Assembly (NCBI GenBank): GCA_964016885.1
Contig: OZ024758.1
Span: 27,156,001 to 27,220,000, forward strand
Length of the DNA stretch: 64,000 nt
Source of the DNA: Eledone cirrhosa
Taxonomy: Eukaryota
Reading direction: 5' to 3'
This document shows positions 1,584-62,260 of the stretch, one piece after another; position 1 is the stretch's first letter; the number at the start of each line of letters is the position of its first letter. A program made the position numbers and the translations under genes. Below the pieces are notes generated by a model that ran no database searches, had not been told where the DNA came from, and was given only the letters and a program-made list of their open reading frames with translations.

Positions 1584-1623
<40 letters not shown>

Positions 1624-1627
1624 ATAA

Positions 1628-1955
1628 AAAATCAAAAGATGGTTAAAAGAGTTCCATGTATTTTGTGACTTCGAAGTTTCTGTTTGGTTACTTCATCTGT
1701 GATGCGCTTCTGTATATGTACGGCAACTCTCAAAATGTAGATGCAGTCATCATACACACAAACACACACATATATACTATATATATATATAGAGTGTCCA
1801 CCCAAAATGTATACACATATTTATTAGAATACTTTTAAAACTCTTTTAACCATTTTTTGATTTTATATTATTTATACTCCAGTCCTATAAACTGTTGAGT
1901 GCTACTTATCCGATATATGCATTGCTTTATTGTGCTACAATAAAACTCACCTCCT

Positions 1956-1958
<3 letters not shown>
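1628..1958 (+). mobile_element. Penelope-like fold-back fragment (family A) in (TA)n, with captured spacer
   Basis: Arms atcaaaagatggttaaaagagtt / aactcttttaaccattttttga; same tail as 2809-2900, 26131-26225 and 47270-47640; (TA)n on both sides. Confidence 0.7.
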
Positions 1959-2001
<43 letters not shown>

Positions 2002-2157
2002 GTATCCACTGTAAGTTGTGGGGTCTATTCTGTATGAAGAACTCAATGTAATCCATATGTTGAAAATGTTGTAGGTTAAGATAAATCTCAGAAAACAATA
2101 AAACATTAAAAGGAAAACAGAGTCATGATATAAGTTAAAACAATGAAATAAAAAATG

Positions 2158-2210
<53 letters not shown>

Positions 2211-2339
2211 GAGGTTATATTTAATTTGTTGGGATACAACAAGCAAATATTTTTATAACTGATATAAAGCACTCAACAAATTTTTGGAGTAAACATACAA
2301 TATATTAACAAATGGAAACTATATTTATAAAATCATATT

Positions 2340-2404
2340 TATTTCATTATACATATTTCAAGGACACCAAAGCAGATTATGGTGCGCTTTCATCAGATAA
2401 AATA
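2340..2404 (-). ncRNA. Type I hammerhead ribozyme (left arm)
   Basis: Near reverse complement of 2543-2607; tcatcag core at 2390-2396. Confidence 0.8.
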
Positions 2405-2542
2405 TAATATGGATCAGTTTTATAAACAAATATTGACATACCCTTAAAGAATGCGACCATATCGGTTGGCTATCCGGGAGCTTCCAATGGTCGCATTTTT
2501 TAAGGGTATGTCAATATTTGTTTATATAACTAATTCATATTA

Positions 2543-2607
2543 TATTTTATCTGATGAAAGCGCACCATAATTTGCTTTGGTGTCCTTGAAATATGTATAA
2601 TGAAATA
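2543..2607 (+). ncRNA. Type I hammerhead ribozyme
   Basis: TATTTTAT-CTGATGA-[AAGCGCACCA..TGGTGTCCTT]-GAA-ATATGTAT-A-ATGAAATA; stems I and II pair, stem III is near-palindromic. Confidence 0.8.
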
Positions 2608-2645
2608 AATATGGTTTTATAAATATAGTTTCCATTTGTTAATAT

Positions 2646-2676
<31 letters not shown>

Positions 2677-2750
2677 AAGTAGAAGGGATATTTAATTTGT
2701 TGGAAATTCAACAAATATAAATGTTTATAACTGAATCAAAGCACTCGACT

Positions 2751-2808
<58 letters not shown>

Positions 2809-2810
<2 letters not shown>

Positions 2811-3144
2811 GTAGGAGGTGAGTTTTATTGTAGTACAATAAAGCAATGCAGATATCGGATAAGAAGCACTCTACAGTTTGTAGGACTGGAGTATACATAA
2901 TATATAAGATCAAAAGATGGTTAAAAGAGTTCCATGTATTTTATTATGCGCATTTCAAAAACAAATATCATCATGCAATAACATATGTTGATTTAAAACT
3001 GCACTATCCACAAGTGTTTTTTAACCTTCATATCATGTCTTCCTATTTTATCTGATGAAAACACAAATGTTATTGCATGATGATATTTGTTTTTGAAATG
3101 CGCATAATAAAATACATGGAACTCTTTTAACCATCTTTTGATCT

Positions 3145-3153
<9 letters not shown>
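2809..3153. mobile_element. Penelope-like fold-back element (family A)
   Basis: Arms ~2897-2984 / 3067-3153, tail at 2809-2896, (TA)n flanks. Confidence 0.8.
3044..3114 (+). ncRNA. Type I hammerhead ribozyme
   Basis: TATTTTAT-CTGATGA-long stem II-GAA-ATGCGCAT-A-ATAAAATA; perfect 8-bp stem I and perfect palindromic stem III. Confidence 0.85.
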
Positions 3154-3186
<33 letters not shown>

Positions 3187-3192
<6 letters not shown>

Positions 3193-3272
3193 TTACACTT
3201 TACTCACAAGTACTGAGTGATCACTCAATGCACGATCACTCAATACTTGTGAGTAGAGTGTAACATTTTATA
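3187..3272. repeat. Small fold-back next to (TA)n
   Basis: ttacactttactcacaagtactgagtgatc / gatcactcaatacttgtgagtagagtgtaa. Confidence 0.7.
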
Positions 3273-3417
3273 AGTAGAAAAGTGGCAGTGACTTCGAAGT
3301 TTCTCTTTGGTTACTTCATCTGTGTGATGCGCTTGTGTATGTGTACGGCAACTCTCGAAATATAGATGCAGTCATCAAACACACAAACACACACATATAT
3401 ACAATATATATATATAT

Positions 3418-3494
3418 AGAGTGTCCACCCAAAATGTATACACATTTATTAGAATACTTTTGAAGTATGTATACATTTTTAGGGGGACATCCTG
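3418..3494. mobile_element. Tc1/mariner-type MITE (CAGGGTGTCC family), diverged
   Basis: gagtgtccacccaaaatgtatacac ... gtatacatttttagggggacatcctg. Confidence 0.55.
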
Positions 3495-5109: not shown

Positions 5110-5270
5110 TGTCATATATAATGTGTTTTTTTTAATGTAAAATAAAATTATTGATTCTCCAGCTGCTGTATCAATATGAATCACAATAAAATTTCGCTGG
5201 AGATAGATTAGCAAAATTTAATAAGCCTGGGGGATGGGTGTAATAAAAGCGAGTTTGATCTGAAAAATTA

Positions 5271-5409
5271 ATAATTGTTTCTACTTTTGGCACAAGGCCA
5301 GCAAATACCCAATGCATTACTGGTACTTTATTCTATCGACCCCGGAAGAATAAAGTACCAGTAATGCATTGGGTAATTGCTGGCCTTGTGCCAAAAGTAG
5401 AAACAATTA
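5271..5409. mobile_element. Inverted pair of SINE 3' ends (hairpin)
   Basis: Two ~65-bp SINE tails facing outward; aattaataat on both sides. Confidence 0.85.
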
Positions 5410-5437
5410 ATAATGAGTATTTTTCATTGGTTATATA

Positions 5438-6653: not shown

Positions 6654-6754
6654 CAGCGTGTTCCCCAAAAATGTATACACACTTCAACAGCATTCTAATA
6701 AATATTGCCTGTACAGGTAATCAAAGTGTGTATACTTCTTTGGGCGACACCCAG
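6654..6754. mobile_element. Tc1/mariner-type MITE
   Basis: Same family as 26264-26363; TA flanks. Confidence 0.65.
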
Positions 6755-12458: not shown

Positions 12459-12607
12459 GATAGAATTAATTAATAATGATTAATAATGGTATATCGTGCA
12501 ATGGCCATACTCGATAACGAGGGGGCAGCCATCATCATGTATGTATGTGTGTGCGTGCGTGCGAGTATATATATGTATGTATGTGTATATGTATGTATGT
12601 GTGTATC

Positions 12608-26130: not shown

Positions 26131-26134
<4 letters not shown>

Positions 26135-26225
26135 GGAGGTGAGTTTTATTGTAGTACAATAAAGCAATGCAGATATCGGATAAGAAGCACTCTACAGTTT
26201 GTAGGACTGGAGTATACATAATATA
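26131..26225 (-). mobile_element. Solo family-A tail in (TA)n
   Basis: Identical to 2810-2905. Confidence 0.8.
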
Positions 26226-26267: not shown

Positions 26268-26361
26268 GATGTCCCAAAAATGTATACACACTTCAACAGC
26301 ATTCCAATAAATATTGCCTGCACAGGTAATCAAAGTGTGTATACATTTCGGGGGGACACCT

Positions 26362-27779: not shown

Positions 27780-28929
27780 CAGTGGTTCCAAAACAGGGTT
27801 ACGCCGAGGAGTGTCTGGGATTCCGTGAAAAAAGGTAGAGGAGTATATTTATATAATTGTTTCTACTTTTGGCACAAGGCCAGCAATCACCCAGTGCATT
27901 ACTGGTACTTTATTTTATCGACCCCGTCAGGATGAAAGGCAAAGTTAACCTCGGCGGGATTTGAACTCAGAATGGCAAGGGCCGTAACTCTATGCGTCAA
28001 AGCATGGCGTCCGACCCTCTACCGATACTGCCAATCCACCGCCCTCAGTTATATAATTGTTTCTACGTTAGGCACAAGGCCAGCAATTATCCCAGTGCAT
28101 TACTGGTACTTTATTTTATCGACCCCGTAAGGATGAAAGGCAAAGTTAACCTCGGCGGGATTTGAACTCAGAATGGCAAGGGCCGTAACTCTATGCGTCA
28201 AAGCATGGCGTCCGACCCTCTACCGATACTGCCAATCCACCGCCCTCAGTTATATAATTGTTTCTACGTTAGGCACAAGGCCAGCAATTACCCAGTACAT
28301 TACTGGTACTTTATTTTATCGACCCCGTAAGGATGAAAGGCAAAGTTAACCTCGGCGGGATTTGAACTCAGAATGGCAAGGGCCGTAACTCTATGCGTCA
28401 AAGCATGGCGTCCGACCCTCTACCGATACTGCCAATCCACCGCCCTCAGTTATATAATTGTTTCTACGTTAGGCACAAGGCCAGCAATTATCCCAGTGCA
28501 TTACTGGTACTTTATTTTATCGACCCCGTAAGGATGAAAGGCAAAGTTAACCTCGGCGGGATTTGAACTCAGAATGGCAAGGGCCGTAACTCTATGCGTC
28601 AAAGCATGGCGTCCGACCCTCTACCGATACTGCCAATCCACCGCCCTCAGTTATATAATTGTTTCTACGTGAGGCACAAGGCCAGCAATTACCCAGTGCA
28701 TTACTGGTACTTTATTTTATCGACCCCGTAAGGATGAAAGGCAAAGTTAACCTCGGCGGGATTTGAACTTAGAATGGCAAGGGCCGTAACTCTATGCGTC
28801 AAAGCATGGCGTCCGACCCTCTCCCAACACTGCCAATGACCATATAACAGTATTAGAATTTCGGGTTCCCTTCTAAGTTTCTGAACCAAAAAAAGGGTTC
28901 AGCGTTTGAAAAAAGTTTAATAAACCCTG
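27780..28929. mobile_element. hAT MITE hosting the SINE array
   Basis: cagtggttccaaaac ... gtttaataaaccctg; 8-bp TSD ctctacat/atctacat. Confidence 0.6.
27853..28837 (-). repeat. Five tandem SINE copies (period 200/201 bp)
   Basis: Units start at 27853, 28053, 28254, 28454, 28655; linker ctcagttat. Confidence 0.95.
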
Positions 28930-36643: not shown

Positions 36644-37668
<1,025 letters not shown>

Positions 37669-37884: not shown

Positions 37885-37957
<73 letters not shown>

Positions 37958-38103
37958 TTTAGAGTTTATGTTGGTTGTATACCAACACCTCAGTATGCAG
38001 GCTGGAGCACTCGACGAAGTGCGCAGGTTGGTTTGGTTACTCCGGAGTAGTGTAAAATAAAGTTAAATAAAAGTCAAATGATTAAAATTTAGCTTCGTTT
38101 ATT

Positions 38104-38158
38104 ACTGCTATATATATTTCAGTGACAGCCATCTTTGGCTGTGACCTCTTCAGGCAGT
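38104..38158 (-). ncRNA. Type I hammerhead ribozyme (left arm)
   Basis: Exact reverse complement of 38709-38763. Confidence 0.9.
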
Positions 38159-38708
38159 TTGAATTAGTATGGTATAGACAAGTACATATGTTGTTTAGGT
38201 GTATGATATTGTCAATACTCTGATATGCCCAGTTCCTTGTTGGGTTGTTAATTCACTGGGGAACTGTTAGCAGCAGCAAGATATAAGCTGACCACTACAA
38301 CAACAACAGTACCAAAATAATGGTGGAGGTCAAATGTACTGAACAATAGCAGGCATAAACACTACAGGGAGCCTCACCCCAGAAAGAATTCTATAGACTT
38401 CTGACTGAGGAATGCTCTCAGAACTGAACAATGGGAAGTTTGACACATTTTTTGATATTTTGTTCCTTCAACACCTTCTCCCTTCTACCATTTTATCAAT
38501 TTTTAAGCTAACTCCAACAATGACAACACTAATAACTGACCAATGAGAGGAGAAGGGGACCTGTGACACTAAAATTCGTTTGTTTGAATTTATATGACTC
38601 CAGTTCCCCAGTGAATTAACAACCCAACAAGGAACTGGGCATATCAGAGTATTGACAATATCATACACCTAAACAACATATGTACTTGTCTATACCATAC
38701 TAATTCAA

Positions 38709-38763
38709 ACTGCCTGAAGAGGTCACAGCCAAAGATGGCTGTCACTGAAATATATATAGCAGT
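38709..38763 (+). ncRNA. Type I hammerhead ribozyme
   Basis: ACTGC-CTGAAGA-[GGTCACAGCCA aaga TGGCTGTCACT]-GAA-ATATATAT-A-GCAGT. Confidence 0.9.
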
Positions 38764-38999
38764 AATAAACGAAGCTAAATTTTAATCATTTGACTTTTAT
38801 TTAACTTTATTTTATATATATATATATATATATATATTGTTTGCTGAAAATTGAAGTAAGTGACATTGTCGCTACTTTAAAACAATAGCGTAGGTTTTCA
38901 AAATGCTTTTAATTAAGCATACAGTGTATTGCAAAATACACTATATTCATATATATATCGCTATTTCAGATCACCTATTCTAATATATATATATATATA

Positions 39000-57295: not shown

Positions 57296-57642
57296 CACAT
57301 CTCCCCCTCCCCCTCATATTATCTTTGTGTGTGTATATATATATATATATATATTATAAATATACATATATCTGCGTGCTTATAAATGAAGGATTCGGGA
57401 CCCCGACGGCTGAGCTCCTGCCGTTTCGACAGTGAGATCCGAACTGCCGGAAGATATATATATAATTGTTTCTACTTTTGACACAAGGCCAGCAATTACC
57501 CAGTAGATTACTGGTACTTTATTTTATCGACCCCATAAAGATGAAAGGCAAAGTCAACCTCGGCGGGATTTGAACTCAGATCGTAAAGGGACGTAACTAT
57601 GCTGGAAAGCATGGCGTCTGACCCTCTACCGATACTGCCAAT
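56717..57642. mobile_element. Three main-family SINEs (56717-56899 +, 57029-57191 +, 57462-57642 -)
   Basis: Consensus matches; the first has TSD attaaatgattg. Confidence 0.85.
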
Positions 57643-59044
57643 ATATAATGATAGGGTGTGGTAAAAAAAACCCAAAAAACAGGTGGACCATAACCCACCA
57701 GAGTACTCGATATTTGGGGTAGTAGAGTGGGTAATATGAAAAGATTGAGGACCGTTTCAACAGCCGTCTTGAATCTTTTCATATATATCAAATATATTTG
57801 AGTATATACATGAATATATGAGTATATACATGAGTATATACATGAGTATTATGTTTGTTGGTGTGTGTATATAAATGTAAAAGTAAGTGTAAATAAGAAA
57901 ATTTTATATAAAATATCTGGAATTTGCATAAATATTGTGTATGTGTGTATGAGGTCCTTTAAATGTTAGCGGGGCGAGTAGTGCACAGCTAGAAATTCGT
58001 GTTTGTGTGTACACGATAGATAGCTAGCTATCTTGCCAGCTCTTCTCCCTTATTCAGCTGTCGTACAGTTAAAACAGGAGAGGAAATTCCCTTCACTTTA
58101 TATGACCGTTCCTTTCCTTACCCAACTTTTCCAGCGTTCTCCCACGTCGCAACAGCCTGTCAAATATTTTATTGTTTCGGTTAGTAGAGAAGATTTTGTT
58201 TCCAATATTCGTTTGACTTCACGTAGACACCACCTCCGTCGCCATCTTTATATTTACGATAGCAAAAGCGCTTCATGTTGTCATTCATACTTGTGTTAAA
58301 GGTGCTTGTCTATCTTAGAGGTATTATACGCTCGGGACGAAGAACAATATATACGATAAGCAATCAATCAAATAAATATTTAAGCAATTCTATATAAGTA
58401 TCGATCGCAAGAAGTCGGCAGTCGAGAATTCTAGAAATGAGCTGCGGTAAGAAAAGAATTGAACGCTGTCGCCGAGTTTCACGTATCAGCTTGAATGACT
58501 AGCTATCCCCAGCCACACAAACCACAAAGTCACGTATGTACCTAATAATCAGATTACTTTACATACTCGAAACTATTTGACTGGGAAAGTTGAGTCTATT
58601 GAAGTATATTTCTGTTTAAAGTATTATTTATATTCGCGGGGAGGGGGGGGGGGTACATTCCGAGAGCATCCGCAAATAGTGGACGTGGTCCATAAAATAA
58701 CTATCAATGCCAAAATATAACGTAAAATATGATAAAAAAAAACGAGGGGGCGTCTTATGTCAAGAGGCGTCCAATAGGCCGGCAAATACAGTATATTGTT
58801 ATTAATAATTTAGCGTTAAAAAAATATATATATATATTGCCATGAAAGAAGATAGTTACGATTCCGCGAATATGCGATGGTTTCCACGAACAATTATTAG
58901 TTAGGTTCCAAGAAAAATTCCGCGAATAACCGGAGTAGACTGTAGTTTTGCAGCGGAACGAAATGTTGAAGGTATAACACAAGTAGGATCTTAATAATTA
59001 GTAAACTGGAAATCGTGTTCTCAATGTTTATATAATTGTTCGAT

Positions 59045-60560
59045 AAACTATATTGGCCTAGTGGTACGGGTGTTGGGGTTCGATTCCTGGGCTCCTTTTT
59101 TTTAATGACCAGTTATAGCCAATTTCAACAGAAAAAGGTAGAGAATTCTGGCCGGTTTGAACATTAACTGGTTAAGACAGGCTTTAGAATTAGATAAGAA
59201 ATAGCTGTAAATATCAGTACTTCAACAGACAACATCCAGGGGCTGGGACCAATATAAAAATAATAGTTTCTGATTTTAGGCCCAAAGTAAACAAACTATA
59301 TTGGCCTAGTGGTACGGGTGTTAGGGTTCGATTCCTGGGCTCCTTTTTTTAATGACCAGTTATAGCCAATTTCAACAAAAAAAGGTAGAGAATTCTGGCC
59401 GGTTTGAACATTAACGGGTTAAGACAGGCTTTAGAATTAGATAAGAAATAGCTGTAAATATCAGTACTTCAACAGACAACAACCAGAGGCTGGGACCAAT
59501 ATAAAAATAATAGTTTCTGATTTTAGGCCCAAAGTAAACAAACTATATTGGCCTAGTGGTACGGGTGTTAGGGTTCGATTCCTGGGCTCCTTTTTTTAAT
59601 GACCAGTTATAGCCAATTTCAACAGAAAAAGGTAGAGAATTCTGGCCGGTTTTGGCCGGTTTGAACATTAACGGGTTAAGACAGGCTTTAGAATTAGATA
59701 AGAAATAGCTGTAAATATCAGTACTTCAACAGACAACATCCAGGGGCTGGGACCAATATAAAAATAATAGTTTCTGATTTTAGGCCCAAAGTAAACAAAC
59801 TATATTGGCCTAGTGGTACGGGTGTTAGGGTTCGATTCCTGGGCTCCTTTTTTTAATGACCAGTTATAGCCAATTTCAACAAAAAAAGGTAGAGAATTCT
59901 GGCCGGTTTGAACATTAACGGGTTAAGACAGGCTTTAGAATTAGATAAGAAATAGCTGTAAATATCAGTACTTCAACAGACAACAACCAGAGGCTGGGAC
60001 CAATATAAAAATAATAGTTTCTGATTTTAGGCCCAAAGTAAACAAACTATATTGGCCTAGTGGTACGGGTGTTAGGGTTCGATTCCTGGGCTCCTTTTTT
60101 TAATGACCAGTTATAGCCAATTTCAACAGAAAAAGGTAGAGAATTCTGGCCGGTTTTGGCCGGTTTGAACATTAACGGGTTAAGACAGGCTTTAGAATTA
60201 GATAAGAAATAGCTGTAAATATCAGTACTTCAACAGACAACATCCAGGGGCTGGGACCAATATAAAAATAATAGTTTCTGATTTTAGGCCCAAAGTAAAC
60301 AAACTATATTGGCCTAGTGGTACGGGTGTTAGGGTTCGATTCCTGGGCTCCTTTTTTTAATGACCAATTATAGCCAATTTCAACAGAAAAAGGTAGAGAA
60401 TTCTGGCCAGTTTTGGCCGGTTTGAACATTAACGGGTTAAGACAGGCTTTAGAATTAGATAAGAAATAGCTGTAAATATCAGTAGTACTTCAACAGACAA
60501 CCAGGAGCTGGGACCAATATAAAAATAATAGTTTCTGATTTTAGGCCCAAAGTAAACAAA
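59045..60560 (+). repeat. Six-unit tandem array of ~247/257 bp
   Basis: Units start at 59045, 59293, 59540, 59797, 60044, 60301. Confidence 0.95.
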
Positions 60561-61122: not shown

Positions 61123-61297
61123 CATTGAGACCAATATAGGAATAATACAAGGAGAACCGATTAATGATACAATGAATGCGGCTAAGAGCGTTAGAGCGCC
61201 ACACAAATATATTAGCCGTACTAGCAGAAAAACCAGCCTTCGGGCGGTTTTCTACTAGCATGTGTAGTGTGTATATTGATATTATACACAAATATAT

Positions 61298-61355
61298 GGC
61301 ATAGGTTAAGTTTAACGTCCTCGAAAATGAAAGTGGATTTTCTGACAAGTGAATG

Positions 61356-61386
<31 letters not shown>

Positions 61387-61927
61387 TGAAATTTACGATA
61401 CACTTTTTGTTTATTTACAACAGGTCTCTATAGTGATATGGTGTTAATTAGTATTGCGTGTGTGATTATTTTCTCTTATATATATATATGTGTGTGTGTG
61501 TATATATATGTGTGTTTGTATATATATATGTGTTTGTGTCATCATCATCGTTTAGATGTTTTTGTAATATCTTGCCAAAGTTGGCACCAACTATAAACAA
61601 ATTAAGGCCGGATCATAAGAAGGACAGAGAATGATAAGGGATTTGGGTAAAAACATCTAAACGATGATGATGACACAAACACATATATATATATACAAAC
61701 ACACATATATATACATACAGACACACATATATATACACACATATACACACCCACACACATATATATAAGAGAAAATAATCACATACGCAATACTAATTAA
61801 CACCATATCACTATAGAGACCTGTTGTAAATAAACAAAGTGTATCGTAAATTTCACTGTAAAACAAACGCATTCACTTGTCAGAAAATCCACTTTCATTT
61901 TCGAGGACGTTAAACTTAACCTATGCC
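61298..61927. mobile_element. Mutator/Foldback-like non-autonomous element
   Basis: TIRs of ~265-280 bp, GGCATAGG...CCTATGCC; exact 9-bp TSD CAAATATAT (61289-61297, 61928-61936). Confidence 0.85.
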
Positions 61928-62260
61928 CAAATATATTATACATGTAGAAATGATACATCAAATAAAATCGTAATTGACAATATACACAGAAAGACTGTGT
62001 TACACTGTCTTATGTAATCAGTAACGTAATCCATGATACATTAAAAAAAGACGATATTATATATAAACTGCATTAGGAGAAAATAAGCGACGGAAATATA
62101 TGCAATATTTTTATAAGTGATATAATATAACGGCCGCTAACCGGAAGTGTTGACGTTTGAACATTTTAAAGATCTTTAAATAAGCTATAAAATATATTTA
62201 ATCAACAGCCACGAAATTTGGCACATAAATTATGTAATATTCATTCATTATTTATTCAAA

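Follow-up and report, generated by a model that had tools for sequence, protein, structure and literature searches.

Introduction

Insertions of Penelope-like elements (PLEs) are recognized by several structural marks. Their pLTRs have been described as carrying an inverted 5'-truncated copy, a tail on one side, a hammerhead motif and a bias towards (TA)n targets (PMC8557442). In work with a purified PLE protein, both strands were cut and extended, and synthesis started from two RNA sites, which mark the limits of the tail (PMC11167929). The excerpted part of that report describes ribozyme cleavage as unnecessary in vitro, with no reads ending at the cut. PLE hammerheads were reported to have low activity in vitro (PMC4209133). 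Foldback elements are defined by long terminal repeats with internal tandem units and by target duplications of 8-10 bp (PMC4079207). Our comparisons with these and the following papers refer to excerpts from each.

Capture of foreign sequence has been described in two retroelement systems. In the rotifer Adineta vaga, host DNA was captured between the pLTRs of Penelope elements, and template jumps were proposed as the cause (PMC3846280). L1 produces short, locally templated insertions (10.1101/2024.08.27.596794) and RNA chimeras that arise by template switching or ligation (PMC13174262). Host-DNA capture by PLEs and local templated insertion by L1 are already known, and a PLE that captures local sequence goes modestly beyond them. 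The literature searched, which consisted mostly of open papers, supplements aside, did not place PLE junctions at the cut sites of hammerheads. What is new here, as read from alignments, is a left join that lies near the family's predicted ribozyme cut and in register with a decayed hammerhead-like motif of the donor.

Results

We analyzed a 64,000-nt stretch of DNA (the window) that contains element A, a hairpin-shaped insertion with a spacer between its arms, along with several sister copies (Table 1). A preliminary description had proposed that this spacer is a slightly diverged copy of a segment downstream, copied from that local donor. The alignment bears this out. The two segments lie on the same strand in direct orientation, 1623 bp apart, and align over 176 columns with 164 matches, 6 substitutions and 3 indel events (BLAST, 92.7%, E 4e-70). 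The captured length is 172 nt, and the spacer-donor distance is 3.5%. These differences between the copies, together with their unrelated flanks, rule out an assembly artefact. The captured tract consists of repeat remnants. The donor matches the non-MITE part of the spacer (1665-1770) with a score of 175, and no other place in the window scores above 36. Besides the spacer itself, the donor is the only place in the window where the remnant, microsatellite and MITE of the tract are joined.

Table 1. Positions of the features discussed, numbered from the first letter of the window
Feature	Positions	Strand	Basis or remark
(TA)n target, left part	1585..1618	.	tandem array 1585-1623
Element A, inverted tail-less copy	1611..1664	-	5' end (sense) at base +3 from the ribozyme cut predicted for the family
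Captured segment, direct copy of 3288-3461	1665..1836	+	sequence alignment
Copy of the donor's decayed motif	1667..1699	-	predicted cut abuts left junction; missed by model R1
Left part of MITE within captured segment	1790..1836	+	alignment
Element A, direct 5'-truncated copy	1837..1871	+	family match from 1839, +14 from cut
Unpaired 87-nt tail of A, starting with ACTCC..GAGTGC motif	1872..1958	+	alignment
(TA)n target, right part	1960..1994	.	tandem array
Sister copy B	2810..3159	-	tail 2810-2896, arms 2892-2988 and 3063-3159
Family type-I hammerhead motif within B, with its predicted cut after 3106	3044..3114	+	descriptor, covariation
Palindrome with tail-type motif (ACTCTACT..ATTGAGT)	3184..3272	-	probably 3' part of an older element continuing into the donor
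Donor of captured segment	3288..3461	+	sequence alignment
Decayed hammerhead-like motif of the donor	3290..3322	-	one-mismatch core, GAAA, palindromic stem III and GUC; stems I and II absent
TA-flanked MITE of the short form with both ends; the copied tract stops within it at 3461	3417..3494	-	alignment with sister copies
Sister copy D, tail and a few arm bases	26131..26225	-	alignment
Tandemly duplicated sister copies C1 and C2, without a spacer	47265..47637	+	arms joined at 5-nt microhomology

The right end of the copied tract falls inside the donor MITE. This MITE is about 78 bp long and belongs to a short form that lacks 22-24 bp of the long copies. The copy takes 45 bp of it. Both terminal-repeat ends of the donor MITE can be aligned to three sister copies in the window. 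The short terminal inverted repeats are clear in all three sisters and decayed at the donor, where an inverted-repeat search that recovered the sisters (18-nt pair) found none. The right TA of the donor MITE is not preserved. The earlier claim that the copy stops in the middle of a MITE that is complete at the donor therefore holds for the breakpoint and for the presence of both ends, which are decayed and have lost one flanking TA. This MITE may be of the Tc1/mariner type, judging from its TA flanks and a CAGGG-like terminus.

Sequence variants connect the spacer to this one MITE copy. The spacer and the donor have three variants in common that are absent from all three other MITE copies in the window. 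A further 2 bp have been lost in the donor alone and are present in A and in the three other copies. The partial MITE (45 of 78 bp) and the three private variants establish, within the window, that copying ran from donor to spacer and that its origin was local; both points had been proposed before. We conclude from these alignments that the donor is this particular MITE copy, and that time has elapsed since the copying.

The carrier had been called a fold-back element, with a start at 1628. In the DNA-transposon sense that label is not supported: the anatomy is that of a Penelope-like retroelement, with an unpaired tail and short, non-modular arms. Element A starts near 1611-1619 and extends through the tail to 1958. 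Its inverted arms (1615-1653 and 1839-1876, 92% identity) flank the spacer. The two arms have in common one variant that is absent from B and C, and they differ from each other by one substitution and one short indel over ~35 nt. This divergence is weakly in line with the spacer-donor distance and a single event, in a comparison too short for dating.

The traits of PLE insertions recur among the sister copies. In A, B and C1/C2, an inverted 5'-truncated copy stands head-to-head with a direct copy. A tail of 87 nt is found on one side only in A, B, C and D, and the ACTCC..GAGTGC motif at the arm/tail boundary is common to several unrelated hairpin families in the window. The terminal repeat contains a type-I hammerhead motif, recognized by a descriptor, by shuffles and by covariation. 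All five copies (A, B, C1, C2 and D) are inserted in (TA)n, an AT-rich microsatellite target. Copies in the window end at two points equivalent to the PLE RNA start sites, and D is almost nothing but tail. These copies resemble published PLEs in their head-to-head inverted copies, one-sided tail, hammerhead, AT-rich or (TA)n target and two fixed 3' ends (PMC8557442, PMC11167929). They differ in that the tail is 87 nt long, compared with 30-40 bp in the excerpted description (PMC8557442), and that the inversion junction of A holds a foreign tract where the published passages describe overlaps or palindromes. Unlike autonomous PLEs, these copies show no ORF.

We searched the window for the proteins of such elements. 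None of the 106 open frames of at least 70 aa in the window matched a reverse transcriptase or a GIY-YIG domain, and a Pfam search of the same 106 frames returned four sub-cutoff matches, none of them to a mobile-element domain. Short non-coding copies are expected to lack the PLE enzyme, and the parent element may lie beyond the window. Element A is likely a non-coding PLE insertion, an assignment that is structural because no PLE protein was found.

Other classes of hairpin element fit less well. The arms of these copies (35-97 bp) contain no internal tandem array, and one terminus of the element is the unpaired tail in place of an inverted repeat. A target duplication, including one of the 8-10 bp Foldback type, is not readable inside the (TA)n around A. 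Element A resembles the Foldback elements Tetris and Galileo in having inverted arms around a variable middle; it differs from them, as far as the excerpted account describes them (PMC4079207), in having no long modular terminal repeats, no visible 8-10 bp duplication, an asymmetric tail and a family hammerhead motif. Non-LTR retrozymes are likewise non-coding, carry type-I hammerheads and are proposed derivatives of PLEs (10.64898/2026.07.22.740005). They are described as head-to-tail arrays with a ribozyme in each unit, whereas the copies in the window are inverted pairs, and the only tandem pair (C1/C2) has no hammerhead core. C1/C2 is a 209-bp tandem duplicate that includes the (TA)n array, at 47222-47685.

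Hammerhead motifs are frequent in the window. The type-I descriptor gave 11 matches in 7 insertions, while 100 local shuffles gave a mean of 0.17 matches and a maximum of 1. We aligned eight hammerheads, a set that excludes the unrelated 37036-37086 motif as well as two sister arms that were nearly identical. In this alignment 94.7% of cells are paired, compared with 37-56% for slid structures. Two-sided changes occur in 10 of 19 pairs, and none of 500 shuffles scored as high; the structure was drawn from the same eight sequences, which favours it. A covariance model (R1) built from these eight window hammerheads returned 27 matches, among them the eight training copies and the two sister arms, and it missed the intact unrelated motif at 37036-37086. 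With Rfam, no hammerhead reached E<=1 anywhere in the window or E<=10 in 3030-3400, and the scans yielded only sub-threshold microRNA-like hairpins. At least seven hammerhead-bearing insertions are present in 64 kb of this genome.

The window motifs resemble the minimal type-I hammerheads described from metazoan PLEs (PMC4209133). Both have a long helix II and a short palindromic helix III suited to dimers, and both occur in pairs 100-700 bp apart on opposite strands. The window motifs, putative ribozymes, differ from the excerpted description in having a helix I of 5-11 bp and a first helix II pair, A-U or G-U, that directly follows the core. They also lack a G10.1-C11.1 pair placed as described there.

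Further hairpins were observed in the window. Families in or beside (TA)n at 2208-2657, 19514-19870, 20139-20518, 37956-38813 and 51587-51772 contain intact type-I hammerhead motifs and mostly have one-sided tails. The intact motif of an unrelated family at 37036-37086 (minus strand) sits within 36834-37628, between duplicated and inverted blocks. A near-perfect palindrome of 650 bp (20874-21523, 99%) has (TA)n on one side and no match to the hammerhead descriptor.

Sister copy B lies between A and the donor, in opposite orientation to A, with arms of 97 nt. Its centre, which corresponds to the position of the spacer in A, is occupied by the family's own hammerhead motif; in A this motif has been truncated away. 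The spacer of A is absent from B, C1, C2 and D, so that within the window it is not a routine part of the family. Each of the three pieces that make up A can be matched within 2773-3464, around B. The tails of B and D are identical over all 87 sites, and those of B and C differ at a single site, whereas A and B differ at six of the 87 (polarised differences, Fisher P 0.03). Because A stands apart in this way while B and D are identical, we conclude from the tail sequences that B is younger than the capture event and that A is an older, independent insertion. The same polarised differences rule out A as a copy of B. Derivation of A from a C-like hairpin is ruled out by five additional family bases in A's right arm. 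Without B, the distance between A and the donor is 980 bp; it would shrink to 455 bp if two more insertions, whose age is similar or unknown, were taken out as well.

The two junctions of the spacer are different in character. At the right junction, donor sequence runs to 1836 and is followed by AA and then by family sequence. There is an imperfect microhomology of 2-3 nt at this point, with GAA in both donor and family and AAAA observed. The left junction shows no microhomology, and A's arm stops there 2 nt short of the family's predicted cut. The tail-less arm of C ends 1 nt short of the cut, and its 5-nt microhomology also explains C's join. We located 16 independent copy ends from five families relative to the cut, leaving out C2 and tail-only copies: 2 lie at +1..+3, 3 at +14 to +19, and 11 past the cut. 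Two of 16 ends at +1..+3 correspond to P ~0.03 under uniform models, a post hoc value. Because 11 of the 16 ends lie past the cut, most insertions would derive from RNA that had not been cleaved, in agreement with the in vitro findings. The ends of A and C could reflect run-off at a cleaved 5' end.

At its left end, the donor contains a decayed hammerhead-like motif. Read on the minus strand, it consists of a one-mismatch core, 12 nt, GAAA, an 8-nt palindrome and GUC, with a predicted cut at 3290. GAAA, helix III and an NUH cut triplet are present. An intact CUGAnGA core with helices I and II is not, and the core mismatch occurs in both copies. Folding gave no hammerhead and no helix I or II, and the motif is not among the 27 matches of R1. 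When aligned on their predicted cuts, the family, the donor and A are in exact register. The chance of this is ~0.0004 for an exact match and 0.002 within 2 nt, both calculated post hoc. Out of 20000 donor shuffles, 9, 2 and 1 placed a degenerate form of the motif within 3 nt of a junction at the three stringencies used, with a descriptor written after the motif had been seen. The left end of the copied tract also coincides with a 10-bp DNA palindrome.

A tail-type motif lies 30 bases downstream of the donor motif and belongs to a second tail class. Three of four copies of this class have GAAAC..GTC 25-35 nt upstream of the tail, and the fourth has a shortened hairpin at that place; no complete hammerhead of the class was found in the window. 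This arrangement suggests that 3184-3390 is a decayed element of the second class, in which case the neighbouring DNA that was captured would itself be partly retroelement remnant. Members of the second tail class (ACTCTACT..ATTGAGT) were observed at 51120-51331, 51811-51972, 57398-57784 and 19104-19131, some with the GAAAC..GTC half-motif upstream and none with a visible complete ribozyme core.

We examined seven spacers in the window (those of A, B, F2, E19, E38 and E23 and the segment 37030-37215), and one of the seven, that of A, has a specific local donor. The spacers of B and F2 are element-internal. Those of E38 (334 bp) and E19, like the 37030-37215 segment, occur just once in the window; the arms around the E38 spacer are 100% identical over 214 bp. 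The E23 spacer matches a MITE-family motif in two copies and therefore has no specific donor. In the hairpin at 23570-23697, the short spacer matches the long MITE form over 29 nt (96.6%, 26321-26349) and 25 nt (100%, 6713-6737). The arms of this hairpin also resemble MITE words, and both capture and kinship are possible.

Discussion

The main result is a correction of class: the abundant hairpins of this region are probably retroelement insertions. Annotation from inverted repeats alone would label such hairpins MITEs or fold-backs. For element A, we favour the reading, at a probability of roughly 75%, that it is a non-coding PLE pLTR insertion in (TA)n in which a 172-nt local copy bridged two cDNAs during integration. 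The PLE protein would have been supplied from elsewhere, and both strands of the (TA)n array would have been cut. Two cDNAs would then have been primed towards each other, with starts at the tail end and at the arm/tail boundary. The cDNA that lacks the tail would end at, or 2 nt short of, the RNA 5' end made by the ribozyme. The gap between the cDNA ends would have been bridged by 172 nt from a locus ~1.0-1.3 kb away, through a reverse-transcriptase jump or repair synthesis. Two-strand priming, timing at insertion and use of cut RNA are the steps that we infer. The choice between an RNA and a DNA template is nearly even; the orientation fits a jump onto a minus-strand transcript, a fit with even odds by chance. 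The template switching put forward in the preliminary description is supported as the likely cause of the copy.

The copy could also postdate the insertion. In that case A would have begun as an ordinary PLE hairpin whose centre broke later through cruciform cleavage, with nearby DNA then serving as the template for repair synthesis. A hairpin within (TA)n is a plausible place for a break. The imperfect microhomology at the right junction is in keeping with such a repair, and the palindrome at the left end of the tract could stall synthesis, which offers an explanation of that end without RNA. Later repair does not explain, however, why A's arm should end 2 nt from the ribozyme cut and almost at the base where the arm of C ends, and the arm and spacer-donor divergences are compatible, weakly, with one event. 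We consider later repair rather unlikely.

Two other accounts would dispense with capture by a PLE. The spacer might be a dispersed composite repeat or a copy of a paralogous locus, near its match by chance, in a carrier that is a Foldback-type DNA transposon or a MITE. The captured DNA is built of repeat remnants, which leaves room for a paralogous donor beyond the window. The joined remnant, microsatellite and MITE of the tract occur elsewhere in the window only at the donor, however, and arms of ~35-50 bp without internal tandem repeats, with a long tail outside them, are unlike the Foldback elements of the excerpted account (PMC4079207); we regard this explanation as very improbable. Local replication slippage (FoSTeS/MMBIR) that copied B's two ends and adjoining sequence would account for the matches to all three pieces of A within 2773-3464. 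It is hard to credit, since the tail differences (6/87 between A and B, 0/87 between B and D, 1 between B and C) place B after the copying event, and the two products of that event are 3.5% apart, the donor with its own later change.

The left junction may have a more specific origin. It could be the join of two ribozyme-cut RNA ends, one from hammerhead-cut element RNA and one from a cut nascent local transcript. We put this forward tentatively, as a minority possibility. The ends could have been ligated as RNA, cyclic phosphate to 5'-OH, or bridged by a reverse transcriptase that jumped on running off, and the decayed local site, acting as one half of a hammerhead dimer, could have been cleaved in trans. 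The exact register, the rarity of the motif in shuffles and the GAAAC..GTC in three of four tail-class copies would speak for such a join. Against it, the motif was already decayed when copied, and there is a single case. The failure of the motif to form helix I or II, its absence from the R1 matches (which also miss one intact motif) and the lack of any complete hammerhead of its class in the window likewise speak against such a join. The second base after the cut in A is the donor's and not the element's, so an exact cut-to-cut join would need one later transition.

This junction matters more than the local capture, since it bears on what PLE hammerheads do in vivo. A left join so close to the predicted cut hints that RNA ends made by self-cleavage may set off captures of this kind. 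If the cut-to-cut join is general, PLE inversion points would cluster at ribozyme cut sites, which would be the first genomic record of these ribozymes acting in vivo, as well as a route to duplicating neighbouring sequence.

We compared this capture to those described in other systems. Like the A. vaga Penelope elements (PMC3846280), A holds unrelated captured sequence, and in A. vaga the source of one segment lies near a pLTR. In the excerpted account, the A. vaga captures lie between direct pLTRs and measure 0.9-1.5 kb or comprise whole genes. The tract in A measures 172 bp, sits at an inverted junction, can be traced to a local donor and has a breakpoint at a predicted cut. A and L1 would be alike in copying non-element templates of <250 bp during integration (10.1101/2024.08.27.596794, PMC13174262). 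The L1 templates are typically within 15 bp, as the excerpts describe them, whereas the donor here is ~1 kb or more away. L1 also belongs to a different retroelement class, and no ribozyme is involved in its case.

Other features of the window

An open frame at 52464-52991 (minus strand) contains a PD..E-like motif, with related pieces near 12483-12897 and 13981-14346. It had no Pfam match, and a PDB sequence search with 52464-52880 gave nothing significant. The motif is reminiscent of the endonuclease end of a non-LTR retrotransposon. A long imperfect inverted repeat with internal microsatellites occupies 61291-61937, and a 1.6-kb (TA)n-rich array at 47990-49813 ends in a 200-N assembly gap; the host genome is animal-like and microsatellite-rich. 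At 5267-5414, a piece of an abundant SINE-like repeat is folded into a 68-bp hairpin with a 12-nt centre. Tandem arrays of SINE-like units or fragments lie at 27849-28837, 59045-60560 and 43958-44443, with periods of 201, 257 and 45. The SINE of the window may resemble octopus SINEs.
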